Source: an uncultured Verrucomicrobiales bacterium
Lineage (GTDB): Bacteria; Verrucomicrobiota; Verrucomicrobiia; JADLBR01
Assembly (NCBI GenBank): GCA_964651705.1
Contig: CAZYWZ010000023.1
Span: forward strand, 4,412-68,411
Direction of reading: 5' to 3'
Length of the DNA stretch: 64,000 bases
Position numbers and translations under genes: made by a program. Positions 219 to 38,426 of the stretch are shown piece by piece. Each line of letters starts with the position of its first letter. Positions within the stretch are counted from its first letter, which is position 1. The notes below the pieces were generated by a model that saw nothing but the letters and a program-made list of their open reading frames with translations, was not told the origin of the DNA and did not search any database.

Positions 219-1166
219 TCAGCCGGCGCGGCCCGCGCGGGGATGCGCCTCACCGTGGACACGCTTCAATCTCTCGAGGGTCACGTGCGTATACACCTGC
301 GTTGTCGAAAGCGATGCGTGCCCGAGCATCTCTTGCACGCTCCTGAGGTCCGCGCCACGCTCCACCAGATGCGTCGCGAAACTGTGCCTCAATTTGTGGG
401 GGGTGAGGTTGGCATCCAGGCCGCTGAACGCCAAATACTTTTTCAGCAGTTGCCCGATGGCCGCGACGCTGAGTCGCCCCTTCCGGGCCTTGTTCAGGAA
501 TAGTGGCCCGGCACCCGGGTGACCGGATTCGCGGAGGTACCGCGCCAGGGCCTCCGACGCCGGTTCCCCGATCGGGCACAGGCGCGTCTTTCCACCCTTC
601 CCCCGAACTCGAAATATCCCCGCCCCACCGTCCCAGTCCTCGACATTCAACCCGGCCAGCTCGCTGACGCGCAATCCCGCCCCGTACGCCGTCTCCAGCA
701 ATGCCGCGTCACGATAGGCGGTCCACGCCGGCGCCTGCTTGGCCCGCGGCATCCGCATCGGCGCACCCAATAGCGCCTCCACCTGCCCCACCGTCAAAAA
801 TTTCGGCAACCTCCTCCCCAGTTTCGGCAGCGCCACTCCCTCCATAGGGTTTTCCCCGACCATCCCCTCCCGCAGCAGGAACCGGTAAAATGACCGCAGC
901 GCCGAAAGGTGCTGCCTGACATGCGAGCGCGCATATCCCCTGCGCGAGAGATCAAACAGCAGCCGCCTCACATCCTCGCGCCCGACCGACCCCCAACCCG
1001 AGCCGAAAAAATGCCCCGCCTCGCAGAGGATATCCTCATACGCCCGCAGCGTCAGAGTCGCGCGCCCGCGCACGCCACCCAGATAGTCGAGGAAGGCGCG
1101 CACCGCGGGATCGCCAACCGCGCGCTTGGCGCGACCGCGTCTTCCGGAGTCGCCCGCCCTCCTCAC
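219..1166 (-). CDS. xerC: Tyrosine site-specific recombinase XerC/XerD family
   Basis: 315-aa ORF (GTG start) ending LTPHKLRHSFATHLVERGADLRSVQEMLGHASLSTTQVYTHV, the R..H.R..Y catalytic box of tyrosine recombinases. Overlaps the topA stop by 4 nt. Lies in the dprA-topA-xerC synteny known from many bacteria. Confidence 0.85.
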   Translation of the reverse strand: MRRAGDSGRRGRAKRAVGDPAVRAFLDYLGGVRGRATLTLRAYEDILCEAGHFFGSGWGSVGREDVRRLLFDLSRRGYARSHVRQHLSALRSFYRFLLREGMVGENPMEGVALPKLGRRLPKFLTVGQVEALLGAPMRMPRAKQAPAWTAYRDAALLETAYGAGLRVSELAGLNVEDWDGGAGIFRVRGKGGKTRLCPIGEPASEALARYLRESGHPGAGPLFLNKARKGRLSVAAIGQLLKKYLAFSGLDANLTPHKLRHSFATHLVERGADLRSVQEMLGHASLSTTQVYTHVTLERLKRVHGEAHPRAGRAG

Positions 1167-3838
1167 GCCGCCCGCTTCGCCGACACCCGGGCCGCCTTCC
1201 GCCCCTTCGTCGCCCCCGCCTTGGGTGCCGCCTTCTTCCGGGCCCGTGGCTTCGTCGCCGCCTTCCGTTTTGTCGCCGGCTCCGGCGCCTTCGCCGCGGC
1301 CGGCGCCTCGGCGAGCTTGTCCCCCCCATCCCCCTCCGGCCTCTTGTACTTCGACGCCTTACCGCCCTTGCCCACGCGGGGCGGAAAACCAAAACCGATC
1401 TTCCCCTCCGGCGATAGCGCCAGCCACGCCGAGAACGGCCGCCGCGTGCGCCGCGACCAGAACTTCTCCAAAAGGTCCGTCTTGCCCTCCGCCAGGAGCT
1501 TCGCTGCCTGCTCTCGATCGATGTCTCTCCCCAGGATCTTCTTGCTGATCCGGATGGTGCACTTCGCCTCGCCTTCCGTGGCCGGGCCCACCGCCCGCTC
1601 GCAGATGAACGCCATCGGCGTCTCAAAAACCCCGCCGCCGCAAATCGGGCATTTGCCGACCGGTTCCTGCCCGGAGAAATCGGCCGGACCGCCGCCAAGG
1701 CCATCCAGATCCAGCTCCACCTTCCACTCGTCCGTCAGCCTCAGGCCCGCAGAAAATGTCTTCCCGGCCTTCGACCGGAAACCATCCAGCGGCCCCACTT
1801 TCCGCTGCGTGATGAGCTCCTCCGCCTCCTCCCGCTCCAGGCGCCGTCCCGCGATCGTCTTCCAGATCGTAAAGTTATCGTTGACCGATTTGTATGCCTT
1901 GAAGGTCTCGATCATGTCGGCCCCGTCCACCGGGCTCTTGACCGACAGCGGGCTCGCGCCCAGATCCGTCTCCTCGAAGCTCTTCGCGATGCCGACGATC
2001 TCGCGCGTCAGATCCGAGATCTCGCGCATGAATTCCGCGCGGCTCATGTGGCCGTTCTCGATCTCGCGCAGCTTGTGCTCCCACTCGCCCGTCAGCGTCG
2101 GCGAGACCAGCGCGTCCACCCCGATGGCCCGGAGCAGTTCGATGAGCGAGATCGCCTTCGACGAGGGCACCAGCTCGCGCCCCTCGCGGTGCACGTAATG
2201 CTCGTAGATCAGGCCCTCGATGATCGAGGCCCGGGTCGCCGGCGTCCCGAGGCCCCGGTCCTTCATCGCCTCGCGCAGCTCCTCATCCTCGAGCAGCTTC
2301 CCCGCGGTTTCCATCGCCGTCAGGATCGTCGCCTCGGTGTAGCGCGCCGGGGGCCTAGTCTCCAACGCCGCCACCTCGACCGCGACGGTATCTGCCCGCT
2401 CCCCGGCCGATACCGGCACCACCTTGCCCTCGCCAGCCTCGGCCTCCCGCCCGTACACCGCCAGCCAGCCGGGTTCCCGAAGGATCTTACCCTCGGTCTT
2501 GAAGGGCTCGCCCTCCACCCGGGTGATCCGCGTCGTCACCTCGAACCTCGCCGAGGGATAGAATACCGCGATGAACCGCTTCGCGATCAGGTCAAAAAGT
2601 TTCGCCTCCGCCTCGTCCAGCCTCGCGTGAATCTGCCCCGTCGGGATGATCGCAAAGTGATCCGACACCTTCGCGTTGTTGAAAATCCTGCGGTTGGATT
2701 TCACCCAGTCCGACTCGAGCGCCTTTGCCGCATGGCCCGCGAGCGGCCCGCAGCCGGGGGGCAACTCCGGCGCCTTGGCGATCGCGCCCAGCGCCTCGCG
2801 CACCACGGGAAGATAGTCCTCCGGCAGGGCCCGGGAATCGGTGCGCGGGTAGGTGATCATCTTGTGCCGCTCGTACAGGGCCTGCGCCAGCTGCAACGTC
2901 CGCCGCGCCGAAAAGCCGAACCTCCCGTTCGCCTCCCGCTGCAGCGTGGTCAGGTCGTATAGCAGCGGCGGCGCCTGCGTCGCCGGCTTGGTCTCTTCGG
3001 TGACCTCGCCCGGCCGGCCCTCGCACCGCTCCTTGATCGCTAGGGCGCGCGCCTCTTCCCAGATCCGCTCCGCCCGGAGGTCCGACTCCTCGCCGGAATC
3101 CGATGCCCCCTTCTTGAAGGCCTCGTCAAACCACTTGCCCTGGTACTGCCCCGCCGCCACCCCGAAGGTCGCCGTCACCTCCCAGTATGCCCTGGGACGG
3201 AACGCCCGTATCCGCTCCTCGCGCTCGACGAGCATCGCCAGCGTCGGTGTCTGCACCCGCCCCACCGTCGCCCGATGCGCGCTCTTCGAACCGTAGATCC
3301 TGCGCGTGAAGGCCCGCGTCCCGTTGATGCCGATCAGCCAGTCCGACTCGCTCCGGCAGGTCGCGGCATCCGCGAGGTTATCCAGCTCGTCGCCATCCCG
3401 CAGATGGCCAAAGCCGTCCCGGATCGCCGCCGGCGTCATCGACGAGAGCCAGAGCCGCCGCACGCGCTTCTTTACCCCGGCCAGCCGGAGGATGTAGCGG
3501 AAGATCAGCTCTCCCTCCCGCCCCGCGTCGCACGCGTTCACGATCTGCCCGACGTCCTTCCGCTTCATGAGACGCACCAGCAGCTCGTAGCGCTCCTGCC
3601 CCTTTTCGGTCGGCTGAAGCCGAAACTCCTCCGGGATGATCGGCAGCGCCTCCAGCGTCCAGAAACGCCACTTCTTGTCCAGCTGGTCCGGCTTGCAGAG
3701 TTCCACCAGATGGCCGATGGCCGAACTGATCACGTACTCGTCACTCTCGAAATGATCCCCTTTTCGCCCCACCTTGCCCAGCGCGCGCGCGATGTCCGAC
3801 GCCACGCTCGGCTTCTCTGCAATAACCAACGTCTTCAT
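1163..3838 (-). CDS. topA: DNA topoisomerase I (type IA) with a C-terminal Zn-ribbon region and a lysine-rich tail
   Basis: 891 aa. N-terminal TOPRIM MKTLVIAEKPSVASDIARALGKV...ISSAIGHLVEL. Cys pairs KCPICGGGVFETPMAFICERA in the C-terminal part. Terminal KKAAPKAGATKGRKAARVSAKRAA basic tail. Confidence 0.9.
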   Translation of the reverse strand: MKTLVIAEKPSVASDIARALGKVGRKGDHFESDEYVISSAIGHLVELCKPDQLDKKWRFWTLEALPIIPEEFRLQPTEKGQERYELLVRLMKRKDVGQIVNACDAGREGELIFRYILRLAGVKKRVRRLWLSSMTPAAIRDGFGHLRDGDELDNLADAATCRSESDWLIGINGTRAFTRRIYGSKSAHRATVGRVQTPTLAMLVEREERIRAFRPRAYWEVTATFGVAAGQYQGKWFDEAFKKGASDSGEESDLRAERIWEEARALAIKERCEGRPGEVTEETKPATQAPPLLYDLTTLQREANGRFGFSARRTLQLAQALYERHKMITYPRTDSRALPEDYLPVVREALGAIAKAPELPPGCGPLAGHAAKALESDWVKSNRRIFNNAKVSDHFAIIPTGQIHARLDEAEAKLFDLIAKRFIAVFYPSARFEVTTRITRVEGEPFKTEGKILREPGWLAVYGREAEAGEGKVVPVSAGERADTVAVEVAALETRPPARYTEATILTAMETAGKLLEDEELREAMKDRGLGTPATRASIIEGLIYEHYVHREGRELVPSSKAISLIELLRAIGVDALVSPTLTGEWEHKLREIENGHMSRAEFMREISDLTREIVGIAKSFEETDLGASPLSVKSPVDGADMIETFKAYKSVNDNFTIWKTIAGRRLEREEAEELITQRKVGPLDGFRSKAGKTFSAGLRLTDEWKVELDLDGLGGGPADFSGQEPVGKCPICGGGVFETPMAFICERAVGPATEGEAKCTIRISKKILGRDIDREQAAKLLAEGKTDLLEKFWSRRTRRPFSAWLALSPEGKIGFGFPPRVGKGGKASKYKRPEGDGGDKLAEAPAAAKAPEPATKRKAATKPRARKKAAPKAGATKGRKAARVSAKRAA

Positions 3839-3887
3839 ATTATAAATCTGTGCCGAGGTCCCACCCGCGCCGCACTCGCCCGGCCCT

Positions 3888-5000
3888 TCAATTCAGCCGA
3901 ACGAAGTACTTGCCAGGGAGCGGGCGCACGAGGCGCCGAAGCTCAAGTTGCAGCAAGCTAGAGGACACCTTGGCGGGCGGCAACCCGCAAATTCGAATGA
4001 TCTCATCGATGTGGCGCTCGTCGGAACCCAGCGCGTCCAATATCGCAATTTCCTCGCCCCCAGGAGCTTCTGCCGCCAGCGGGCCCGCGCCATCCGCCTT
4101 CGGTGGCGCCACCTTCCCGATGCCGGGCACCAGGAACTCGAACTCGGCCAGCACATCCTCGGCGCCCTCCACGAGCCGCGCGCCGTCCTTGATCAGCTGG
4201 TGGCAACCCCGCGAATGCGGCGTGTCCACCCTGCCCGGCACAGCGAAAACCTGCCTCCCCTGATCCAGCGCCATGCGCGCCGTGATCAGGGCCCCGCTGC
4301 TCTTCGGCGCCTCCACCACCAGCACCCCCAATGACAATCCCGCCACGACGCGATTCCGGATCGGAAAGGTCTGCTTGTCCGGCTCCGTCCCGAGCGGAAA
4401 CTCGGAGACCAGCGCTCCCGACTCCGCCACCCGATCCGCCAGCAATCGATTCTCTGGCGGATAGACGCGATCGATGGCAGACCCAAGCACCGCGATGGTC
4501 CTCCCCTTGGCCGCGATCGCACCCTCGTGCGCGTGGGTGTCCACCCCGCGCGCCAGACCGCTGATCACCGTCATCCCCGCATAGGCCAACTGGAAACCCA
4601 GGCGCCGCGACATCTCGCGCCCATAATACGAGGTCTGCCTCGATCCCACCACCGCCACACCGCGCCGATCCCTTGCCTCGAACCCACCCCGCACGTAGAG
4701 GGCCAGCGGCGGATCGTAGATGTTTCTGAGATTCTCCGGATATTCCGCGTCCGCAGGCGTCAGCAGCCGGACCCCCAACGCCTTCGCCCGCGATAGCTCC
4801 GAGGCCAGATCCGCGTGCGATTCCCAGCCCGCGATCACCGAGGCCACGTCCTCCCCGATGCCCTCCACCCGCGCCAGCCTGCCACGGCTGCACCCCAGCG
4901 CGGCGGCCGCGCCCCCCAGCGCCTCCACCAGTCGCCGCACGCGCCCCGGCCCCACCTTCGGGAGCATGTTCAATGCCACGTACGCCTCGGATTCCGTCAT
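3888..5000 (-). CDS. dprA: DNA processing protein DprA (Smf)
   Basis: Rossmann-like DprA core GVDTHAHEGAIAAKGRTIAVLGSAIDRVYPPENRLLADRVAESGALVSEFPLGTEPDKQTFPIRNRVVAGLSLGVLVVEAPKSSGALITARMALDQGRQVFAVPG. Start set at the internal Met (MTESEAYVALNMLPKVGPGRV, a typical DprA N-terminus). The ORF stays open upstream to 5231 (GTG). Confidence 0.85.
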   Translation of the reverse strand: MTESEAYVALNMLPKVGPGRVRRLVEALGGAAAALGCSRGRLARVEGIGEDVASVIAGWESHADLASELSRAKALGVRLLTPADAEYPENLRNIYDPPLALYVRGGFEARDRRGVAVVGSRQTSYYGREMSRRLGFQLAYAGMTVISGLARGVDTHAHEGAIAAKGRTIAVLGSAIDRVYPPENRLLADRVAESGALVSEFPLGTEPDKQTFPIRNRVVAGLSLGVLVVEAPKSSGALITARMALDQGRQVFAVPGRVDTPHSRGCHQLIKDGARLVEGAEDVLAEFEFLVPGIGKVAPPKADGAGPLAAEAPGGEEIAILDALGSDERHIDEIIRICGLPPAKVSSSLLQLELRRLVRPLPGKYFVRLN

Positions 5001-5283
5001 GAACCGACCAGTTTCCAAGACCCCGGTCAAAATGTCCAGACCATGCCGCCGGCCTTGTGGCTGGCCCCCGGATCCGGGCGTGAGGGTCCCGCGAATGATG
5101 GCCAACTCTTTTGGAGTGCGGCGTCGGAGCGCCGCTTTGGATTGCCCCGCACGTCCCGGCGTGCGCTCGCCGACTCCTTCGCCGGACGACGCAGGACCGA
5201 CCCTTACGCGATGATTTCGATTGCCCGGCACCCATCACCACGCACCATGAATCGCACGGGTCCAAACGCATGACACCCAACAC

Positions 5284-12661: not shown

Positions 12662-14167
12662 ATGAACCACGCCTATGGTAGTCCCGAAAACGCCGACATC
12701 GCGCTGGAGTTGCTGGATGCCCCGCATTACACCGGCAACGATCTCGTGGCGCTGATCAACGGCACCGGCCACAAAGTCACGATCACAAAACCCGACGGCA
12801 AACCGCTCGCGGCAGACTTGAAGATCGTCTGCGGCCAGACCCACCGCGCTGACGCGGAGGACGTTGGCAAGACCTTTGCAAAAGGGATCGGCCTCAAACA
12901 GATCTTCTCAATTCTTGCCACGCTGACCGTCCTACAAGCCGCTGCCCTCGAGCCACCGCAGTGGGACATTGCCATGCTTTCTAAACCACCGTCGGCAGTC
13001 GAGGCGCAGGAAGGCAAGGTTGAAGGCTTGCAGTCTCTCTTCCTCGACGGCCTACCCTACAAGGGACGGCCAACAAAGTTCTATGCGTATCTGGGATTTC
13101 CCACCAACGCGACCGGCAAGGTGCCGGCCGTAGTGCTTGTTCACGGCGGCGGCGGCACGGCGACTGCGCCATGGGCGAAGTATTGGGTCGCGAAAGGCTA
13201 CGCCGCACTTTCGCTCGACACCGAGGGCCATCTGCCGGTGAAAGCCTGCGACCGGAAACCCGGTGATCCCGGCTGGAAGACGATGGACAGTCTGGGTCAG
13301 CCGTGGGGTGGGCAACCGCGGCGGCCGAAAGGCTTTGCCGATCCCGCTTTACCACCGGAGGAACAATGGCTGTATCACGCTGTGGCGGACTCGATCTTGT
13401 CCATCTCATTTCTAACGTCACGCCCTGAAGTGGACGCAAACCGCATCGGGATCGTTGGCATCTCGATGGGGTCGGTTGTGTGCAGCATCGTGGGCGGTCT
13501 CGACCAGCGGTTGGCCTTTGTCGTTCCGCAATACATCGGCGGCAACAACGATCTCGGCAACGTCTGGTATGCCATTATCAAAGAGCACCCCGACGTCATG
13601 CGCTTGGACCCCGCGAACTTCTACCGCCAGCCCAAAGGCAAAGCGCACTGGCTCTGGATCAACGGCGACAACGACAAATACGGCCTGCCGCCCATGACCA
13701 CGAAATCCTGGCGCGAAACGGGCCCAAACTCATGGATGACGCTTCTTCCGACACAAGGCCACGGCGGCGCCTTCGGCGAGACCGGCCCGAACGCCCTGCG
13801 CGAAATCTACGCCTTTGCCGACAGTGTCACGCGCGGCATTCCGCCGTTGGCGCGCATCCTCAGCACGGCGCGTGTGAACAACTCTGTCACGCTGATCTGG
13901 CGTGAAGCCACACCCGTGACGCGATCTCAGATCATCCACACAACCGAGGCGATCCCTACTGTAGCGATCAGCGGCGACATCCGCAAAGATTGGCCGACGG
14001 TGAACTGGCACATGCAGGACATGCCGCTGCCAAAAGTGATCAGGCTGCCCGACGGCGGGCTGCGAGCCGACTTCCCATTGCCCGCTGGCGTGAAAGCCGC
14101 CTACATCAACCTGATTGATAAGCGAGGCCTTGCCGTGTCGAGCGATTTCCTTTTCGTCCAGCCCTAA
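12662..14167 (+). CDS. Alpha/beta-hydrolase esterase (acetyl-xylan-esterase / dienelactone-hydrolase-like)
   Basis: GxSxG nucleophile elbow GISMGSV. Putative Asp in NGDNDKYG and His in TQGHGG. VVLVHGGGG oxyanion region. Lower GC than the surroundings. The track ORF 11336..14167 extends upstream through a region that overlaps the preceding sulfatase; start taken at the first in-frame ATG after that gene. Confidence 0.5.
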   Translation: MNHAYGSPENADIALELLDAPHYTGNDLVALINGTGHKVTITKPDGKPLAADLKIVCGQTHRADAEDVGKTFAKGIGLKQIFSILATLTVLQAAALEPPQWDIAMLSKPPSAVEAQEGKVEGLQSLFLDGLPYKGRPTKFYAYLGFPTNATGKVPAVVLVHGGGGTATAPWAKYWVAKGYAALSLDTEGHLPVKACDRKPGDPGWKTMDSLGQPWGGQPRRPKGFADPALPPEEQWLYHAVADSILSISFLTSRPEVDANRIGIVGISMGSVVCSIVGGLDQRLAFVVPQYIGGNNDLGNVWYAIIKEHPDVMRLDPANFYRQPKGKAHWLWINGDNDKYGLPPMTTKSWRETGPNSWMTLLPTQGHGGAFGETGPNALREIYAFADSVTRGIPPLARILSTARVNNSVTLIWREATPVTRSQIIHTTEAIPTVAISGDIRKDWPTVNWHMQDMPLPKVIRLPDGGLRADFPLPAGVKAAYINLIDKRGLAVSSDFLFVQP

Positions 14168-14182
14168 TCCACGTTACCACTA

Positions 14183-14479
14183 ATGGAATACACAATCCTT
14201 ACCGTCCTTACCGCTTTGCTGCTTGCGCCGCTGGCGATGACAATTCCGCTTTACGGCATAAGCGCAAAGGAGATCATGTATGCATCCGGCGTTGCGGGCG
14301 GACTGGCTATTCAATTTTCCTTCCGCAACGACACCCTCACCGCCGAACTGCTGGCGAATGATCGCTATGTTGTCAAGGGGCTGGAAGCGGAAAGAAAATG
14401 CAAGAGGATGCAGGAAATGCCGGAGCAAGACCAGTCCTTCAATGCAGCGGAAAAGGTAAGTCGCGAGAGTGACGTATGA
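14183..14479 (+). CDS. Small hypothetical protein (98 aa) with an N-terminal hydrophobic segment
   Basis: ORF in the low-GC island (MEYTILTVLTALLLAPLAMTIPLYG...). Its last codons plus stop are part of the 27-bp repeat shared with 16341-16367. Confidence 0.35.
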   Translation: MEYTILTVLTALLLAPLAMTIPLYGISAKEIMYASGVAGGLAIQFSFRNDTLTAELLANDRYVVKGLEAERKCKRMQEMPEQDQSFNAAEKVSRESDV

Positions 14480-16311
14480 TGACAAGAGCAGTGCGGTGTT
14501 TTTGTATGTTGGCATTGGTGGGGCATGCCTCCGGCGGCACGTATCATGTGGCCAAGGATGGCTCCGACAGCAACGATGGATCCGTCAGAAAACCCTTTTT
14601 TACGATCCAGCGGGCGGCGGATGTTGCGCAGCCGGGGGACACCATCATCGTCCATGAAGGGGTGTACCGCGAGCGGGTCAACCCGCCGCGCGGGGGGACA
14701 TCCGATGAGCGGCGCATCACCTATCAGGCTGCGCCTGGCAAAAAGGTGGTGATCACCGGTGCCGAAGTGGTCACCGGCTGGGAAAAGGTGCAGCACGACA
14801 CCTGGAAGGTGACGCTTCCCAACCGCCTTTTCGGTGACTTTAATCCGTTTGCCGATCTGATTCAGGGTGCTTGGTTCGATCGCAAGGGCAGGGATCACCA
14901 CACCGGCGCGGTCTATTTGAACGGGCATTGGCTGACCGAAGCGGCTGGTTTAAGTGAGGTCATGCCGTCTGCCGGGACAGCACCGCTCTGGTTCGGACAG
15001 GTGGATGAGCAGAACACCACCATCCACGCCCAGTTTCCGGGGGTTGATCCGAATAAGGAATTGGCGGAAGTCAATGCGCGCCAAACCGTATTTTATCCGG
15101 ATCAGCCGGGCCGTAACTATATTACGGTGCGCGGGTTTACACTGACTCAGGCGGCCACGCCGTGGGCGCCTCCGACGACCGAACAGATCGGCCTGATTGG
15201 AACGCACTGGAGTAAAGGATGGATTATCGAGGACAACACCATCAGTTATTCGACCTGCTCCGGAATGACCTTGGGGGCTAAGAATATGGGGAAGTATGCC
15301 GGGACCGCTCTCGGATACATAGAACAGATCCAATATGCGACTACGGATGAGGGGGGGTGGACCCGGGATAATATCGGCCATCACATCGTCCGCAGAAACA
15401 AGATTATTCATTGCGAAATGGCGGGCATTCACGGCAGTATGGGCGGGGCCTTCAGTCTGATTGAAAACAATGAGATCTCCTATATCTGGGTCCGTCGACA
15501 GTTTAGTGGTATGGAGCAGGGAGGGATCAAACTGCTCGGCGGGGTGGATTCGGTGATTCGCAACAATTTGGTTCATAACACAAGGCACGGAATTTGGCTG
15601 GATTGGATGGGGCAGGGCTCGGAGGTCAGCGGGAATGTGTGCTTCGCCAATGATTCCGACCTATATCTCGAGGTTAACCACGGGCCGGTGTTGGTTGCGA
15701 ATAATATATTTTTGTCGCCTATCGCGCACAAGAGTATATCACGGGGAACGGCATATGCGCACAACCTGTTTGCCGGACGTTTCTTCGTGACGGATACGGC
15801 GCGGAAGACCCCGTATCTCAAACCCCATTCGACGAGTGTGGCGGGATATCATGCCAATGCTCCGGGGGATGACCATTTTTATAACAACCTCTATTTTGTA
15901 AACTCTCCAGTAATTAAAACCTTTTACGTATTTCGCGAATATATTGATCCTGAACTTCCGGTGACAATGCGGGATAATCTCTACATGGGGGTGTTGCCTC
16001 ATCCCGATGACGTCAGTCCGATGGTGCAAACCAAAGAGGTCCCCATTTTGAAACCGGTGCAGAAGGCGGACGGAATCTATATTGAATGGGCCAGCCGTGC
16101 TGAATGGACGAACACGACCCGTCAGGTCGTGACCTCCGACCTGCTCGGCCGTGCCGGCGTGTCCGGTGCGCGTTATGAGCAACCGGACGGATCACCGATT
16201 CGGGTGAACCGCGATTATTTTGGACACCCGCGCAACGAAAAGAATCCGCTGCCGGGTCCGTTCGAACTGCCGCCGGGCAAGGTGCTGCTGAAAATCTGGC
16301 CCAAAGAGTGA
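14476..16311 (+). CDS. Right-handed parallel beta-helix repeat protein (pectate-lyase-fold; candidate polysaccharide lyase/hydrolase)
   Basis: Signal peptide MMTRAVRCFCMLALVGHASG. N-terminus GTYHVAKDGSDSNDGSVRKPFFTIQRAADVAQPGDTIIVHEGVYRE typical of beta-helix (DUF1565/pectin-lyase-fold) proteins. Repeated NN-[IV]..N motifs. Confidence 0.55.
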   Translation: MMTRAVRCFCMLALVGHASGGTYHVAKDGSDSNDGSVRKPFFTIQRAADVAQPGDTIIVHEGVYRERVNPPRGGTSDERRITYQAAPGKKVVITGAEVVTGWEKVQHDTWKVTLPNRLFGDFNPFADLIQGAWFDRKGRDHHTGAVYLNGHWLTEAAGLSEVMPSAGTAPLWFGQVDEQNTTIHAQFPGVDPNKELAEVNARQTVFYPDQPGRNYITVRGFTLTQAATPWAPPTTEQIGLIGTHWSKGWIIEDNTISYSTCSGMTLGAKNMGKYAGTALGYIEQIQYATTDEGGWTRDNIGHHIVRRNKIIHCEMAGIHGSMGGAFSLIENNEISYIWVRRQFSGMEQGGIKLLGGVDSVIRNNLVHNTRHGIWLDWMGQGSEVSGNVCFANDSDLYLEVNHGPVLVANNIFLSPIAHKSISRGTAYAHNLFAGRFFVTDTARKTPYLKPHSTSVAGYHANAPGDDHFYNNLYFVNSPVIKTFYVFREYIDPELPVTMRDNLYMGVLPHPDDVSPMVQTKEVPILKPVQKADGIYIEWASRAEWTNTTRQVVTSDLLGRAGVSGARYEQPDGSPIRVNRDYFGHPRNEKNPLPGPFELPPGKVLLKIWPKE

Positions 16312-16405
16312 CGAATTCTCAGAGGCAATACGTTAATCCAGAGAGTGATCTATGATGACAAGAGCAGGCTGGATAAGATCGGGTAGGCTTTTTTGGAGAT
16401 TTCAC

Positions 16406-18991
16406 ATGGACCTCACCCTACTCGCCGCCCTGCTGCTCACGACGCTCCCGGCGCTGGGTACCGCCGACGCGGCAATCTCGCCGACCAAACCCAACATCGT
16501 TTTCATCTTCGCCGATGATTGGGGCTGGGGGGATTTGGGCTGCCACGGGCATCCTTGGCTGAAGACGCCGCACCTTGACCAGCTTGCCAGCGAGGGCACC
16601 GACTTCCATCAGTTTAACGTACTCAACCCCGTCTGCTCGCCGAGCCGGGCTGCGGTGATTACGGGCCAATACCCGGCGCGTCGCTGCATCCACCAGCACT
16701 TCGCCGCACCGGCATCCAACGCCCAGCGAGGCATGCCGGACTGGCTCGACCCGAAGGCGCCTTCGTTGCCGCGTTTCCTGAAGCAGCTCGGCTATCGCAC
16801 CGCGCACTTTGGCAAATGGCACCTCACCAACCGTGAGACCCACGGCGCGCCCACGCCGGACGCTTATGGATACGACGAGGCCAAGGTCTTCAACGGCGGT
16901 GCCGACTGGCCATCGGCTGATGCGCACGCGGCCGGTGATGACGCTGTCGCGTTCATCAAGGCGAACGCCGGAAAGCCATTCTTTGTCAACGTGTGGATTC
17001 ACGAAAGCCATACGCCGCATGTGCCGACGAAGCCGTCCATGCAACGGTGGCAACATCTCGACGAGCAAAAGCAGGTCTATGCCGCCGTCATCACCGATGG
17101 GGACAACGCGGTTGGGAATATTCTCGCGGCGTTGAAGGATGCGGGTGTGGAGAACAACACGATCGTCATGTTCTCCAGTGACAACGGTCCGGAGGGGACC
17201 GGCAAAAACAGAAACTTCGGCGCGAAGGACGCCCACACCAACTCGCAAGGCTACGACACCTATTACAGCGTCGGCTCCACCGGCGGCCTGCGCGGTCGCA
17301 AGCGCAGCCTTTTCGAGGGCGGCGTGCGTGTCCCGTTCATCGTGCGCTGGCCCGGCCACGCGCCGGTTGGAGCGCGGAACGACACGACGGTATTCACGGC
17401 GGTGGATCTGCTGCCGACTCTCTGCGCCGCGGCGGGTGTTACTCTGCCCGCTGACTACCAAGGAGACGGCGAGAACCTGCTCGATGCTTTTGAGGGCAAG
17501 GCCATCACTCGCAATCGTCCCATCTTCTGGGAATGGCAGGGCAACAATGCCGAGCCTGATTGGTGGCCGCGCCTCGCCGTGCGCGAGGGCGATTGGAAAC
17601 TCGCGCTTACCCATGACGCAAAACGCGTGGAGTTGCACCGCCTCACCGACGACCGCGCCGAGGCCGCCGACGTGGCCAAGGAACATCCCGACGTTGTCGC
17701 GCGCCTGACCAGGCTCGCGCTCGATTGGAAATCGACCTTGCCGGAAAAGCCCGACCCCGCCTGCATCGCGCCGATGGCCGCGCGGCACCCCACCGATCCC
17801 ACGCAAACATTGCGGGGGCCCGTATTCCGGTGGGACACCGTTCCGGTTTTCGCCCACTGCGGCAAACCGGACGGGCCGTTCACCGACGAGGAGGCGAAGG
17901 CACTCTCGCGGTTCGCCTACGTTGGGCTGGAGAAGATTCAGGAGATGAAGCTCCGCAAGCCGGCGTTTGAGACCATGCGAGCCGCGGCACTGGCGATCAA
18001 GGCGCACAACCCGAGGACCTTTGTGGCCGCCTACTGGAACACGTGCTTGGAGGATTGCGCCAAATTGCACGGGGAAGGCTATGACCAGTTTCTCAGGCAC
18101 CGCGAAGCGTGGCGACTCCTTGGCAAACACGGTAAACCGGTATTTGTGCGCGATGCCGCCGTGTTCGACCTGACGAAGACGGAGGTGCAGGCCTGGTGGC
18201 TGGAGCGCGCGCGCAAGATCGCGTCGGAACCCGCATTTGATGCCATCTTTCTCGACGCCGCCACGCGGGCGCATTGGCTGGTTTCACAGTGCGGCCAGGA
18301 GCGGGCAGACGCATACGATCAGGCCATGCGGCAGTTGCTCGGCACACTGAACCGCTCCACGGAGAAGCCGCTCATCTATAACGGCATCAATGTCCGCATG
18401 GCGCTCTGGGCGGATGGCGGCAGCCGGTATCTGGACTGGACCGACGGCGCGATGGTGGAGCATTTCCTCGGCCACAGCCAACGCGACGATGACGGCACCT
18501 TGCGAAGCGATGAGTTGGTGAAGACTTTCCAGCGCGTTCGCGACCTCAGCCGCACGGGCAAGATCATTCTCGTGAGATCTTGGCCCAAGACGCACGCCGT
18601 GTGGGGCAAGCGCCCTGAAGATCAACTCTGGATGAACGAGCCGACAGCTTCGGCGAAGGGTACGTCCGCCGGGAGGCTTCCGCCCCAGCTCACGACACCC
18701 CGCGCCGGGAAACTGCGGGAGATCCTTCGCGACGAGCTCGAGTTCTGCCTGGCCTGTTTTCTGATCTGTGCCGGCGAGAACTGCTACTTCAATTATTCCT
18801 GGGGCTACGGCGAGTGGGACTGGGGAACCTCCGGCAACTTCGACTGGTATCCGGAGTTTGACCGTCCGCTCGGCCCGCCCAAGGGCGAGTTCAAGCATGA
18901 CGGCATGATCTTCACGCGCGAGTTCGCCCATGCCGCGGTGCGCGTGGACCTGGAAAATGAACAAGCGCTGATCGATTGGAAGCAGCCATGA
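16406..18991 (+). CDS. Bifunctional-looking fusion: N-terminal Cys-type sulfatase domain + C-terminal (about 400 aa) putative glycoside-hydrolase-like TIM-barrel domain
   Basis: Signal peptide MDLTLLAALLLTTLPALGTADA. NIVFIFADDWGWGDLG. Motif NPVCSPSRAAVITG. C-terminal part (FAYVGLEKIQEMK...AAYWNTCLED...DAIFLDAA...LIYNGINV...ILVRSWPK...YFNYSWGYGEWDWG) is unlike sulfatase C-termini and resembles GH114/GHL-type domains (inference). The track start 16352 (MMTRAG...) lies inside a duplicated junction, so the Met at 16406 is preferred. Confidence 0.7.
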   Translation: MDLTLLAALLLTTLPALGTADAAISPTKPNIVFIFADDWGWGDLGCHGHPWLKTPHLDQLASEGTDFHQFNVLNPVCSPSRAAVITGQYPARRCIHQHFAAPASNAQRGMPDWLDPKAPSLPRFLKQLGYRTAHFGKWHLTNRETHGAPTPDAYGYDEAKVFNGGADWPSADAHAAGDDAVAFIKANAGKPFFVNVWIHESHTPHVPTKPSMQRWQHLDEQKQVYAAVITDGDNAVGNILAALKDAGVENNTIVMFSSDNGPEGTGKNRNFGAKDAHTNSQGYDTYYSVGSTGGLRGRKRSLFEGGVRVPFIVRWPGHAPVGARNDTTVFTAVDLLPTLCAAAGVTLPADYQGDGENLLDAFEGKAITRNRPIFWEWQGNNAEPDWWPRLAVREGDWKLALTHDAKRVELHRLTDDRAEAADVAKEHPDVVARLTRLALDWKSTLPEKPDPACIAPMAARHPTDPTQTLRGPVFRWDTVPVFAHCGKPDGPFTDEEAKALSRFAYVGLEKIQEMKLRKPAFETMRAAALAIKAHNPRTFVAAYWNTCLEDCAKLHGEGYDQFLRHREAWRLLGKHGKPVFVRDAAVFDLTKTEVQAWWLERARKIASEPAFDAIFLDAATRAHWLVSQCGQERADAYDQAMRQLLGTLNRSTEKPLIYNGINVRMALWADGGSRYLDWTDGAMVEHFLGHSQRDDDGTLRSDELVKTFQRVRDLSRTGKIILVRSWPKTHAVWGKRPEDQLWMNEPTASAKGTSAGRLPPQLTTPRAGKLREILRDELEFCLACFLICAGENCYFNYSWGYGEWDWGTSGNFDWYPEFDRPLGPPKGEFKHDGMIFTREFAHAAVRVDLENEQALIDWKQP

Positions 18992-19215
18992 ACCCCAGGG
19001 AGGGCAGGCGCCTCAATCCGGTCTTTCATGCCCACCCTGACACGGCTGGACTGTTGTCGCCACCGCGGCAACCCTGGCCCCATTGACGCATCGCTCTACG
19101 GCCCCTCGGTCGCCAAGCGCAACACCCGTCGAAACCTGGGCCAGCCTGTATTCGTGAATCCCGACTTGCCTGGCGACGCCCACGCGGCTGAAATCTACCC
19201 GAGAACTCCTCGATC

Positions 19216-30217: not shown

Positions 30218-32050
30218 TCACCCGGACGTGCCGTTCAGAAGACGCAGCGTTATCCGACGCAGGTCCATGACGCTCTTGCCGGGGATCGATGTGGCGCGCA
30301 GGACCAGGGGGCCCCGGCCTTTGGGCAGGGTGATTTCACCGAGCCGCAGGGTCTTGAAGGGTTTCATTTGGCTCTCGGCGGGCGGCCTCGGGAGCGTGTC
30401 CTGGTTCGTGTTCAGGGGCGGATCCCACGCCGGCCGCACCGGGCCGCTAAGCCGCGCAGAGTCGCCCAGACTCAATTCGATCACCGCGCCGACATCGGCC
30501 TCGGGAACGGTGTAATCCACGGTGACCTCGTAACGCCCCGCCGTGACGACCTCCACATTCCAGACGAGGCGATCCTCAAGCGATGTCCAATTCACGAAGT
30601 AGGAGCAATTCGGGGCGCTGCTGCTGCGCGCCACGGTGCCCCGCGGTTCGCCATCCCGGGCCGGGAGATCCGTGATGGGAAATTCCGGATAGCCCACCGG
30701 GAGCGGACGCGGGTCGACCGCGTTGCGCGCCGCCTTTTTCTCGGGCCTGTGGCCACTCGCCTCGGGACCGTACATCTCCAACCGCCAGCCCTTCAAAGCC
30801 GAGGCTAACCGGCCGGCGAGGTCCGGCGCCCCATCGTTAATGGGCGCGGTCTGGCCGGGATCGCCGATCATGTCATAGAGATTGCCGTCTTGATCGAGGC
30901 GGTGCGTCTGGGTGCGCAGGCTGGTGCGCCCGTTCCACGCGGAGACAATAAACCGGTCCGGCCATTCCGGGGCGTCACCCGCCAGCAACGGGGAAAGGTC
31001 GAGCCCGTCCAGCGGCGCATCGCCGACCCGCTTGATCCCGGCCAGGGAAACTAAGGTGGGCAGCAGGTCGATGGCCCCCGCAATCTGCGACACGACCCGC
31101 CCTTGAGGGAGTTTCGCCCGCCAGCGCAGGTAGCCCACCGATCGGACACCCCCTTCGTCTGTCTGCCCTTTCCTCCCCTTCATCCCTCCATTCCACCGCC
31201 AGCTGTTGGGGCCGTTGTCGGAAAAATAAAAAATGATCGTATCGTCGCCCAGCCCGAGCGCATCGAGCTCGTCGAGCACGCGCCCCACGTTCCAATCCTG
31301 GTTCGCGAGCATTGCGAGCGCGCACCGGGTCTCGTCCGCCTTCTCCAATTCCGGCCGGGTCGCGCCCTGGGCGACGTCCTTGGCCCTGAAACGTTCCCAG
31401 TACTCCGCCGGCACGGCCCAGGGAGAATGCGGCGTCGTGAATGGAATGTAGCAGAAGAAGGGCTTCTCCCGATGGCGCTCGATGAAATCCAGCGCGCGGC
31501 TGGTGCATGCGTCGACGATGTAGCCCTGGCTGCGCACCATCTTGCCATTGTCGTCCAGCGGCGCGTCAAAGTACTCGCCCCAGTGCCCGGCGGTGTGGCC
31601 GAGGTACTCCTCAAACCCACGGCCCCTCGGATGATAGGGATATTGCGTCCCGTTGTGCCACTTCCCGAACGCCCCCGTGGCATAGCCCGCGCCACGGAAC
31701 GCGTCCGCGATCGTCTTCTCGTCCAGATCCAGCCGCTCCTGGCCCGTGGACACCCCGGTCACGCCCCCCCTCAAATGATAGCGCCCCGTCAAAAATTCCG
31801 CCCGCGTCGGGGCGCAGACCGGACAGACGTAGAAGCGGTCGAAAGACGCACCCTCCTTCGCGATCGAGTCGATCCGCGGGGTCTCGGCCGTCAGGTTGCC
31901 AGAATGGCCGTAGTCGCCCCACCCCGCATCGTCCGCGAGAAATATGACGACATTGGGCTGCCCTGCCCAGACGCTTCCCTCGCCCAGGGCGAACGCACCG
32001 ATGCCCATCACCGCCATTCGCGTCGCCACTCCTCGCCATCTCTTCCACAT
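30218..32050 (-). CDS. Sulfatase (Cys-type) with an extra C-terminal beta-sandwich-like (putative carbohydrate-binding) domain
   Basis: Signal peptide. NVVIFLADDAGWGD. Motif CPVCAPTRAEFLTG. About 150-aa C-terminal extension (YFVNWTSLEDRLVWNVEVVTAGRYEVTVDYT...). The only minus-strand gene inside the plus-strand sulfatase array. Confidence 0.85.
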   Translation of the reverse strand: MWKRWRGVATRMAVMGIGAFALGEGSVWAGQPNVVIFLADDAGWGDYGHSGNLTAETPRIDSIAKEGASFDRFYVCPVCAPTRAEFLTGRYHLRGGVTGVSTGQERLDLDEKTIADAFRGAGYATGAFGKWHNGTQYPYHPRGRGFEEYLGHTAGHWGEYFDAPLDDNGKMVRSQGYIVDACTSRALDFIERHREKPFFCYIPFTTPHSPWAVPAEYWERFRAKDVAQGATRPELEKADETRCALAMLANQDWNVGRVLDELDALGLGDDTIIFYFSDNGPNSWRWNGGMKGRKGQTDEGGVRSVGYLRWRAKLPQGRVVSQIAGAIDLLPTLVSLAGIKRVGDAPLDGLDLSPLLAGDAPEWPDRFIVSAWNGRTSLRTQTHRLDQDGNLYDMIGDPGQTAPINDGAPDLAGRLASALKGWRLEMYGPEASGHRPEKKAARNAVDPRPLPVGYPEFPITDLPARDGEPRGTVARSSSAPNCSYFVNWTSLEDRLVWNVEVVTAGRYEVTVDYTVPEADVGAVIELSLGDSARLSGPVRPAWDPPLNTNQDTLPRPPAESQMKPFKTLRLGEITLPKGRGPLVLRATSIPGKSVMDLRRITLRLLNGTSG

Positions 32051-36975: not shown

Positions 36976-38426
36976 GCCGCCACCTCGCCATCGTATGCCT
37001 ATCCCTCCTGGCCTCCCACTGGACCTCGCCCGCGGCTCCCCCACCGAATATCGTCGTGGTCTTCATCGATGACATGGGATGGGGCGACTTCTCTTGCTTC
37101 GGGAACAGGGACGCCAGCACACCGAACGTCGACCGCCTCGCCTCCCAGGGCATTCGCTTCTCGCAGTTCTACGTGAACTCGCCGATCTGCTCCGCCTCGC
37201 GCTGCGCCCTGACGACCGGCCAGTACCCTCAGCGCTGGCGCATCACCTCCTTCCTGAACAACCGCGCCGACAACGAGCGCCGCGGCATGGCGCAGTGGCT
37301 GGATCCGGCCGCCCCGACGCTCGCCCGATTCCTGAAGGCGGCCGGCTACGCCACCGGCCATTTCGGCAAATGGCATCTCGGCGGCCAGCGCGATGTCGAT
37401 GACGCCCCGCCGATCACGGCCTACGGTTTCGACGCTTCCCTCACCAACTTCGAGGGCATGGGGCCAAAGCTCCTCCCTCTCACCCTTAAGCCCGGCGACA
37501 GAGAACCCGGCCGCATCTGGGCCGACGCCGAACGCCTCGGCAAACCCGTCGCCTGGATGCTCCGCTCGAAGGTCACCACAGGCTTCATCGACGCGGCGCT
37601 CGAATTCGTCGCCACCGCGCAGCGCGCCAAGAAGCCCTTCTACATCAATCTCTGGCCCGACGATGTCCATAGCCCATTCTGGCCGCCGGTGGACCGATGG
37701 GCGGACGACAAGCGAGGGTTGTATCTCGCCGTGCTCGAGGAGATGGATCGCCAGCTTGGCAAGCTCTTTGACCACATTCGCGACGACGCATCCCTGCGCG
37801 ACAACACCCTCATCCTCGTCTGCTCCGATAACGGCCCCGAACCCGGCGCCGGTAGCGCAGGAAGCCTCCGCGGCGCCAAGACCACCCTATTCGAGGGCGG
37901 CATCCGGTCCCCCCTCGTCGCCTGGGGCCCCGGGATCATAGCGCCCGAACGCGCCGGCGCGCACGATGCGACTTCCGTCTTTGCCGCGTTCGATCTCGTG
38001 CCTTCCCTGCTCACCATCGCGGGCGCAAAACGCCCCGCAGGCGTCGCCTTCGACGGCGAGGACATCTCCGCCACCCTGCTCGGCAAGGCCACCACCTCGC
38101 GACAGGCTCCCATCCACTGGCGCCGCCCCCCAGACCGAAAATCCTGGCGTCCGATGATTGCCGACACACTTCCCGACCTAGCCGTTCGCGACGGCTCATG
38201 GAAACTCCTCTGCGATTACGATGGCTCCCGCCCCCTGCTCTACGATCTCGATAAGGACCCCGAGGAATCCCTAAACTTGGCGGCGAGCCATCAGGACATC
38301 GTCGCCCGCCTCACCGCGGCCGCTTTAGCCTGGCACCAGTCGATGCCCGCGGACAATGGCCCCGCGCTCGGAGTGGGGCCCCCGCCACAACCCGGAAAGC
38401 AAAAGAAGAAAATGTCCAAGAAATGA
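36972..38426 (+). CDS. Sulfatase (Cys-type; motif variant C-S-A-S-R) with a Lys-rich C-terminal tail
   Basis: Signal peptide MSRHLAIVCLSLLASHWTSPA. NIVVVFIDDMGWGD. Motif SPICSASRCALTTG. Tail PQPGKQKKKMSKK. In frame with track ORF 36612..38426. Confidence 0.85.
   Translation: MSRHLAIVCLSLLASHWTSPAAPPPNIVVVFIDDMGWGDFSCFGNRDASTPNVDRLASQGIRFSQFYVNSPICSASRCALTTGQYPQRWRITSFLNNRADNERRGMAQWLDPAAPTLARFLKAAGYATGHFGKWHLGGQRDVDDAPPITAYGFDASLTNFEGMGPKLLPLTLKPGDREPGRIWADAERLGKPVAWMLRSKVTTGFIDAALEFVATAQRAKKPFYINLWPDDVHSPFWPPVDRWADDKRGLYLAVLEEMDRQLGKLFDHIRDDASLRDNTLILVCSDNGPEPGAGSAGSLRGAKTTLFEGGIRSPLVAWGPGIIAPERAGAHDATSVFAAFDLVPSLLTIAGAKRPAGVAFDGEDISATLLGKATTSRQAPIHWRRPPDRKSWRPMIADTLPDLAVRDGSWKLLCDYDGSRPLLYDLDKDPEESLNLAASHQDIVARLTAAALAWHQSMPADNGPALGVGPPPQPGKQKKKMSKK

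Follow-up and report, generated by a model that had tools for sequence, protein, structure and literature searches.

Few marine polysaccharides are as hard to break down as fucoidan and other sulfated fucans, and to our knowledge the partnerships between sulfatases and fucanases are mostly unknown. One family of fucanases entered the databases as GHL15, originally one of Naumoff's "hypothetical glycoside hydrolase" families, and has since been characterised; it is now CAZy family GH168, whose members are endo-alpha-L-fucanases acting on sulfated fucan and fucoidan. The family holds both alpha-1,3 and alpha-1,4 fucanases (PMC10778895), its subfamily III enzymes are scarcely active on the fucans tested (PMC12534559), and GH168, GH120 and sulfatases are all components of fucoidan loci, where GH120 xylosidases are listed among the debranching enzymes (PMC11685898; bioRxiv 10.1101/2025.08.13.670036). 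Two kinds of multi-domain protein offer a comparison for the gene considered here: proteins of Planctomycetota that combine GH168 with exo-fucosidase domains (PMC11685898), and P36 of Formosa agariphila, encoded in an ulvan locus, in which an S1_25 sulfatase and a GH78 alpha-L-rhamnosidase act consecutively (PMC8511951). A described protein joining a sulfatase to GH168 was not found in the literature searched. Such a gene lies in DNA of an uncultured Verrucomicrobiae bacterium (assembly GCA_964651705.1, contig CAZYWZ010000023.1, positions 4,412-68,411 of the forward strand); this whole stretch of 64,000 nucleotides (nt) is referred to below as the window, and coordinates are positions in it.

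With a probability of roughly 0.7, the gene encodes a secreted two-domain enzyme of fucan degradation, an S1 sulfatase tethered by a flexible linker to a retaining GH168 endo-alpha-L-fucanase, that arose by a recent in-frame fusion. The substrate would be polymers of the sulfated fucan or fucoidan type. What is new is a rare domain combination with a legible recent origin; the parts belong to well-known families and sulfatase-glycosidase fusions have precedents, which makes the result an incremental one. Like P36, the predicted protein pairs an S1 sulfatase with a glycoside hydrolase for a sulfated algal polysaccharide, and a coupling of its domains can be proposed by analogy. It appears to differ from P36 in sulfatase subfamily, and differs in glycoside hydrolase family and predicted substrate and in that GH78 is exo-acting whereas GH168 is endo-acting; P36 has also been characterised biochemically, whereas the fusion is known from sequence. 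In the Planctomycetota proteins the partner of GH168 is a fucosidase, and here it is a sulfatase.

The two halves of the product

The fusion gene is made up of the following features (aa, amino acids):

16352-18991, forward strand: fusion gene, whole open reading frame (ORF), 879 aa from the ATG at 16352, stop codon at 18989-18991
16406-16471, forward strand: predicted Sec signal peptide core MDLTLLAALLLTTLPALGTADA, residues 1-22 of the 861-aa form, read from the sequence
16472-17767, forward strand: S1 sulfatase catalytic domain, residues 23-454, 93.5% nucleotide and amino acid identity to L006/P0001, a stand-alone sulfatase with an EF-hand tail
16634-16648, forward strand: formylglycine motif C-S-P-S-R, C77 to R81
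17761-17779, forward strand: recombination junction, the 19-nt overlap of two parental homology tracts
17768-17815, forward strand: inter-domain linker APMAARHPTDPTQTLR, residues 455-470, 16 aa, predicted disordered
17816-18988, forward strand: GH168 (Pfam GHL15) domain, residues 471-861, a (beta/alpha)8 barrel with a small C-terminal beta-sandwich
18254-18256, forward strand: codon of D617, predicted catalytic nucleophile (in IFLDAA), aligning with D184 of PbFucA
18458-18460, forward strand: codon of E685, predicted general acid/base (in MVEHF), aligning with E254 of PbFucA
18614-18679, forward strand: clade-specific insertion, residues 737-758, the lowest-confidence part of an insert of about 30 aa, predicted disordered

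A first-pass annotation of this DNA, made from the letters alone, had read a single protein of about 860 aa in which a sulfatase is followed by a glycoside-hydrolase-like domain. The reading of one protein holds: the ORF runs uninterrupted through both halves, with no stop or frameshift between them, and gives 861 aa from the ATG at 16406.

The N-terminal half is, by profile and motifs, a canonical S1 formylglycine sulfatase. Pfam Sulfatase (PF00884) covers residues 29-345 (E 5e-50, profile positions 1-301 of 301) and SGSH_C covers residues 299-427. The CSPSR motif (residues 77-81) aligns with the formylglycine position of the solved structures 7STT and 6PRM, and the residues of the other S1 active-site motifs, DD37-38 (FADDWG), K137/H139 (GKWH) and D259/N260 (SSDNGP), align with conserved positions in the same two alignments. 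We take these residues to be the counterparts of the active-site residues listed for human GALNS. The closest solved relatives (E 1e-57 to 1e-50) are 7STT from Pedobacter, the S1_19 kappa-carrageenan sulfatase 6PRM, the S1_16 enzyme 9FO1 and S1_15 entries; no NCBIfam equivalog reached its cut-off for this half. Among the candidates scored there were 6650 sulfatase homologues at E <= 1e-5, most of them about 535 aa long with a C-terminal pair of EF-hands. Within the clade (P0001-P0120) the tails vary, and in some members modules of esterase or peptidase type come after the EF-hand tail or take its place (PF00756 in P0002; PF00326, PF12146 and PF02230 in P0086; PF05448 and PF01738 in P0100), so that the C-terminus of this sulfatase clade looks like a hot spot for module swapping. 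Neither a formylglycine-generating enzyme nor an anaerobic sulfatase-maturating enzyme (anSME) is among the annotated ORFs of the window.

The C-terminal half is identified by profile searches, modelled fold and conserved motifs together as a GH168 domain with its catalytic motifs and fold intact. Pfam GHL15 (PF14885) matches residues 532-843 along almost the whole profile (positions 1-270 of 271), with E 1.5e-23 and a score of 84.6 bits where 27 would suffice. A profile built from an alignment of this half with 40 relatives (alignment A1) finds every solved GH168 chain, with E-values from 1e-164 to 1e-93 (PbFucA 8RG3-5, Rho5174 9F9V, MeGH168 9NHF, Fun168A 8YA6, Fun168D 9JOC/9JOF and Fun168E 9JOM), and the next families in that search (Cwp19/GHL10, alpha-amylase and GH31) come at E > 1e-4. 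An AlphaFold2 model of residues 471-861 (predicted local distance difference test score, pLDDT, 88.4; predicted template modelling score, pTM, 0.90) has the (beta/alpha)8 barrel and carries the catalytic pair D617/E685, the two things that a structure prediction, proposed as a check in the first-pass annotation, was meant to look for. When this model was compared with the PDB by Foldseek, ranks 1-17 were all GH168 (query TM-score, TMq, 0.75-0.81; E 5e-33 to 7e-24), and the best matches outside the family were distant TIM-barrel glycosidases (the PelA hydrolase domain at E 4e-8, GH191 at E 5e-7).

The barrel had at first been likened to GH114 or a GHL-type hydrolase. The complete sulfatase and the GHL-type barrel both stood, and the family is GHL15/GH168. 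GH114 was rejected: there is no GH114 Pfam match and no enzyme described as GH114 among the 50 Foldseek matches listed. The likeness to GH114 is explained by database entries that label GH168 proteins "GH114 TIM-barrel", as happens with 8RG3 and 9JOM, where the label is automatic and the proteins are GH168.

The active site of GH168 appears to be preserved. D617 and E685 align with the known Asp nucleophile and Glu acid/base of the family (D172/E243 in WfGH168_II, D184/E254 in PbFucA), and within A1 the Asp is invariant and the Glu nearly so. In WfGH168_II, 2-O-sulfated fucose is bound at subsite -1 by E65 and K66 (the "polar knuckle"), Y99, N101, N218 and W332 (PMC12534559). Their equivalents in the fusion, mapped by motif and spacing and not by superposition on a ligand complex, are E509, K510, Y543, N545, N659 and W799, with equal spacing (33 residues from K to Y); these positions are conserved in A1 and in the alignments to PbFucA and Rho5174, and all eight family-defining GH168 residues are in place. 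The short motifs quoted in the first-pass annotation were well chosen, as each is functional in GH168: YWN (Y543/N545), FLDA (D617), YNG (N659) and YSWGY (W799). The domain thus has in common with the solved GH168 enzymes the barrel and C-terminal beta-sandwich, the Asp/Glu pair, the Glu-Lys polar knuckle and the YWN, YNG and SWG motifs of subsite -1, and also a setting in sulfatase-rich loci of Planctomycetota and Verrucomicrobiota. Unlike them, it contains a disordered insertion of about 30 aa, has no signal peptide of its own and is covalently joined to a sulfatase.

Breakpoint, linker and parental genes

The nearest relatives of the two halves are separate genes. The sulfatase half is 93% identical (aa) to P0001, a stand-alone protein of about 535 aa with hundreds of relatives that ends in an EF-hand pair and is encoded by a separate gene in another neighbourhood. 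The GH168 half is 89, 88 and 85% identical to the stand-alone proteins P0445, P0122 and P0121, each of which has its own signal peptide, and the parental-type relatives occupy unrelated neighbourhoods. At the DNA level, the contig carrying the sulfatase type (L006) matches the window over 16418-17779 at 93.5% identity, and the contigs carrying the GH168 type (L001 and L093) match it over 17761-18992 at 86.9-90.5%. In a three-way alignment (A2), sulfatase-like sequence gives way to GH168-like sequence at about 17765-17770, codons I454-A455. Everything beyond "...PEKPDPACI" is gone on the sulfatase side, a stretch of about 78 residues comprising a linker and the EF-hand pair. The GH168 side has lost the n-region of its signal peptide together with the beginning of the h-region, and the rest is kept as the linker, as is seen when P0445 (LAPLAALHA followed by TDPAQTMRRPVF) is set beside the window (IAPMAARHPTDPTQTLRGPVF). 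These alignments establish the gene as a chimera of two stand-alone parental types, and they strongly support the fusion as a recent product of recombination. The first-pass annotation had suspected as much, pointing to a 27-bp direct repeat at the 5′ end of the gene; the separate-gene relatives and the mapped breakpoint bear out the recent recombination, and the repeat, which lies 1.4 kb from the domain junction, was rejected as the cause of the fusion.

The linker itself is, on this comparison, a relic of the h- and c-regions of a GH168 signal peptide and of the first mature residues (compare LAPLAALHATDPAQTMRR in P0445). It has undergone Leu-to-Arg and Leu-to-Met changes, and its mean hydropathy is 0.31, against 1.05-1.5 in the parental types. 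In a model of the full-length protein both domains are confident, residues 458-468 have pLDDT <50, the overall pTM is 0.61 and no confident packing between the domains is predicted; the low pLDDT and pTM point to a flexible tether. The same model also has low pLDDT at residues 1-3 and 13-23, in the signal-peptide region. In the mechanism proposed, an in-frame illegitimate recombination or deletion would have fused a sulfatase gene, at about codon 454, to a stand-alone GH168 gene in the middle of the latter's signal peptide. In this event the sulfatase would have shed its usual C-terminal EF-hand tail, and GH168 would have given up the n-region, and some of the h-region, of the signal peptide that it once had. 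The leftover signal-peptide residues would have become a linker and lost their hydrophobicity, and export of the fucanase would now rely on the signal peptide of the sulfatase; the predicted signal peptide of the fusion aligns with that of P0001.

A different explanation is that the join is an artefact, an assembly chimera or a sequencing frameshift, and that the cell has two separate genes. Such an artefact would account for the nearest relatives of each half being separate genes, and a single clone stands behind all carriers. Against it, five Logan contigs (L088-L092), assembled separately from runs SRR14787577-80 and SRR31594168, which belong to two accession series, match the window at 100.000% identity over stretches of 9-17 kb that take in the junction, and their gene order is the same. 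Because five separately assembled runs are identical across the junction, a one-off assembly chimera is ruled out. A frameshift does not describe what is seen either: the parental stop codon and the EF-hand tail of about 78 codons are physically absent and not frame-shifted, and so are the GH168 start codon and the first part of its signal peptide (about 35 codons in P0445). The 19 nt over which the parental tracts overlap are imperfectly similar and too few to have led an assembler astray, and the linker has diverged from both parental types, which would be unexpected for a chimera of co-occurring genomes. An artefact is therefore highly improbable.

To judge from substitution rates, both halves are under purifying selection. 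Compared with its nearest unfused relative, the sulfatase half has a ratio of nonsynonymous to synonymous substitution rates (dN/dS) of 0.29 at dS 0.15; for the GH168 half and its nearest unfused relatives dN/dS is 0.17-0.20 at dS 0.27-0.38.

Some observations concern the routes by which the two genes may have come together. A crossover through microhomology between "FRWDT" (GH168) and "FERWDT" (EF-hand tail) was considered and rejected, as at the DNA level the break is about 45 nt farther upstream, within the signal-peptide region. In the locus of P0445 (L093, 3475-7820), a gene for a 1005-aa sulfatase overlaps the GH168 start by 4 nt, which probably reflects translational coupling, and a single frameshift or small deletion could turn an arrangement of this kind into a fusion. 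The L093 sulfatase was rejected as the parent because it is unrelated to that of the window. Downstream of the closest stand-alone sulfatase gene, at about 3800-3897 of L006, is an ORF beginning MTAARSQLVDVSVTRYYHCISRCVRRAFL. It presumably resembles Y1 (repetitive extragenic palindrome (REP)-associated/IS200-like) transposases, and mobile DNA beside a parental-type sulfatase gene could be relevant to rearrangements.

Recurrence of the architecture and its likely function

Fusions of this kind are rare, as the first-pass annotation had stated. Among 89 GH168 ORFs at 80 loci of GTDB species representatives, a single one (in L079) is fused to a sulfatase and about seven others carry other extensions. 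Two of the 120 best homologues of the whole protein, P0021 and P0052, are sulfatase-GH168 fusions; fused proteins number 0 of the 50 homologues of the C-terminal half, and no fused cluster representative was among the best 150 in a full-protein search of a representative library. Scanning the GTDB-representative contigs with the C-terminal half alone gave no match, which places the source genome and its close GH168 clade outside the GTDB representatives, and a scan with the family alignment found only relatives of at most 36% identity.

P0021 (JGI 3300009506) and P0052 (NCBI/ENA) are uncharacterised proteins with an N-terminal sulfatase and a C-terminal GH168 domain and no stop between them in the called product. 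Their domain boundary is the same as in the window, after ...LPEKPxPxC; their sulfatase half is 66% identical to that of the window and belongs to the same clade, and their GH168 half is 30% identical. The L079 fusion (ORF 1429-4014 of Verrucomicrobia MAG-85, a metagenome-assembled genome (MAG), JAHDID010000074.1) has the same architecture, also with no stop between the domains, and is built from a different sulfatase (35% identity) and a GH168 half about 33% identical to that of the window. On these comparisons, the sulfatase-GH168 architecture is rare and recurrent, with at least three independent origins, two of which use one sulfatase clade. Because this clade has been fused independently to a different GH168 lineage, Rosetta-stone reasoning suggests that the sulfatase clade and GH168 belong to one pathway.

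The fusion could be real and still be a recent neutral accident, its domains uncoupled or one of them heading for decay. Genes for sulfatases commonly lie beside those for GH168 (80 sulfatase ORFs at the 80 GH168 loci), so occasional accidental fusions are to be expected, and an accident would fit an architecture that is rare, a gene found in one clone and a model in which no confident interface between the domains is predicted (pTM 0.61). However, both halves retain all their catalytic residues, with dN/dS at 0.17-0.29. The architecture also has at least three independent origins, two with the same sulfatase clade, and P0021 and P0052 belong to a lineage old enough for its members to have drifted apart to 67-79% identity. 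P36, with its S1_25 and GH78 domains acting consecutively, is a precedent for functional coupling (PMC8511951). Taken together, this makes a neutral accident unlikely.

In the reading favoured here, the GH168 domain would cut internal alpha-fucosidic bonds next to 2-O-sulfated fucose, the tethered sulfatase would strip a sulfate ester either from the ends of the oligosaccharides so formed or from positions standing in the way of further cuts, and the products would pass to the surrounding sulfatases, the esterase and the GH120-like enzyme. The "compact exo-processing enzyme" first proposed for the gene does not agree with the endo-acting mode of the characterised GH168 enzymes, and endo-cleavage combined with desulfation is the better description.

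A GH168-fold domain might also act on another glycan, such as a non-marine sulfated alpha-linked polymer or a 1,4-fucan. The domain is about 30% identical to characterised members and has a clade-specific insertion, the family already spans two linkage types (PMC10778895) and includes a subfamily hardly active on the fucans tested (PMC12534559), the window has no fucosidase genes, and the loci of close relatives (L001, L003 and L093) are without GH29 and GH95. On the other side, the set of residues by which 2-O-sulfated fucose is bound at subsite -1 is fully conserved, and P0123, a member of the same clade (64% identical to the C-terminal half), is flanked by GH141-like, GH29 and GH95 genes. 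The P0021 fusion likewise adjoins a GH29 fucosidase gene. A different glycan is thus unlikely as the substrate, and a tethered fucanase and sulfatase acting on sulfated fucan remains the favoured reading.

Several points weigh against that reading. All known carriers are of one clone, as their contigs are 100% identical, and a 160-aa query spanning the junction found no second, diverged carrier among Joint Genome Institute (JGI) metagenome contigs, where its matches were on the sulfatase side only; with a single clone and no diverged second carrier, selection for the fused state itself is no more than a possibility. The protein and both its clades are known from sequence alone, and the natural substrate may be something other than brown-algal fucoidan. 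Identity to solved or characterised enzymes is 22-30% for the GH168 half, whose disordered insertion of about 30 aa is missing from the solved GH168 structures; the nearest solved sulfatases are about 35-40% identical and are spread over several subfamilies with similar E-values. There is no GH29, GH95, GH141 or GH107 gene in the window. A parental pair of adjacent genes was also sought, and the 234 nt present downstream of the L006 sulfatase hold the beginning of a different, transposase-like ORF and not of GH168.

A bolder version can be put forward tentatively, as a possibility that is somewhat more doubtful than probable. The gene would be a very young Rosetta-stone event (dS about 0.15 from the nearest unfused sulfatase) that created a bifunctional endo-fucanase/sulfatase. 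Taken with the separate fusion of this sulfatase clade to another GH168 lineage, it would mark the abundant EF-hand-tailed clade of Verrucomicrobiota and Planctomycetota as a fucan sulfatase acting on GH168 substrates or products. If so, tethering would represent a measurable gain in the breakdown of a recalcitrant sulfated fucan. A natural fusion predicts enzymes of the same pathway, and this one points to the large, usually EF-hand-tailed sulfatase clade as working alongside GH168 and supplies a natural candidate for a bifunctional enzyme. With both parental types and the breakpoint still visible, the young event would be a clean example of how a multi-domain carbohydrate-active enzyme originates, with a signal peptide reused as a linker.

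The 5′ end of the gene and its neighbours

The following features flank the fusion gene:

12662-14167, forward strand: AXE1-like acetyl esterase gene
14465-14491: 27-bp direct repeat, copy 1, preceding the GH120-like gene
14476-16311, forward strand: upstream neighbour, a low-GC gene for a beta-helix protein with a GH120 insertion domain (GC, guanine plus cytosine content)
16341-16367, forward strand: 27-bp direct repeat GAGAGTGANNTATGATGACAAGAGCAG, copy 2, containing the candidate start ATG 16352
19216-43541: unbroken run of 15 sulfatase genes directly downstream, 14 on the forward strand and one on the reverse strand at 30218-32050

Translation of the fusion gene could begin at either of two codons, ATG 16352 or ATG 16406. 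Public gene calls use the internal ATG at 16406, from which an 861-aa product is read; this form (P0444) has exact records in NCBI and Logan, and an exact look-up of the 879-aa form returned no record. A start at 16352 would place an Arg-rich n-region, MMTRAGWIRSGRLFWRFH, before the hydrophobic core. A scan for promoters and terminators around the gene gave signals at chance level only.

The 5′ end had been described as lying in a duplicated junction at the border of a low-GC island, and both parts of that description were found to be accurate. The island spans 14000-16400, where GC is 0.47-0.60 against about 0.65 elsewhere, and 16341-16367 matches 14465-14491. The two copies of the repeat are identical at 25 of 27 positions (41 nt at 80% when extended), and two copies occur in the window where none is expected (100 shuffles). 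They bracket the low-GC GH120-like gene and lie just upstream of the public starts at 14506 and 16406, and the repeat looks like a scar or a duplicated 5′ region left by insertion of that gene. The 5′ end of the fusion gene is a third piece of the mosaic: the match to the stand-alone sulfatase gene does not begin until 16418, and the first 22 codons of the long ORF are low in GC and contain the repeat. The GC content at third codon positions (GC3) of the fusion gene is 0.78.

At least 21 sulfatase genes lie in the window, over 5284-50026; one of them, at 38423-40303, encodes a sulfatase with HEAT repeats. The window also encodes an AraC/PAS regulator, DUF1501 and PSCyt2/PSD1 proteins and a GH85 protein. 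In L001, a stretch of 132 nt at 3840-3971, between genes and downstream of the stand-alone GH168 gene, is 91% identical to window positions 13018-13149 inside the AXE1-like esterase gene. This 132-nt stretch appears to be a relic of an esterase gene that lay beside GH168 in that lineage. Multiple GH168 genes at one locus were seen elsewhere, with four in tandem in a Rikenellaceae MAG (L083, 4872-9812) and two each in L035, L036, L040, L060, L067 and L071.

At the left end of the window (219-5231, reverse strand) are genes for a tyrosine recombinase (XerC/D-like), a type IA topoisomerase and DprA in a row. These form a housekeeping cluster, which argues for a chromosomal context and not a plasmid; the topoisomerase (1163-3838) is 82-86% identical to proteins of Verrucomicrobiae MAGs. 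Toward the other end (54497-59491, reverse strand) is a gene for a 1664-aa PSCyt2/PSD1 (DUF1549/DUF1553) protein, the first 1000 or so residues of which consist of Ala/Lys/Gln/Glu-rich repeats of about 95 aa (AKRKAADDAKAALAQAQQ...), and these repeats account for the GC of 0.71-0.73 and the AT skew of about -0.5 at 56000-59000.

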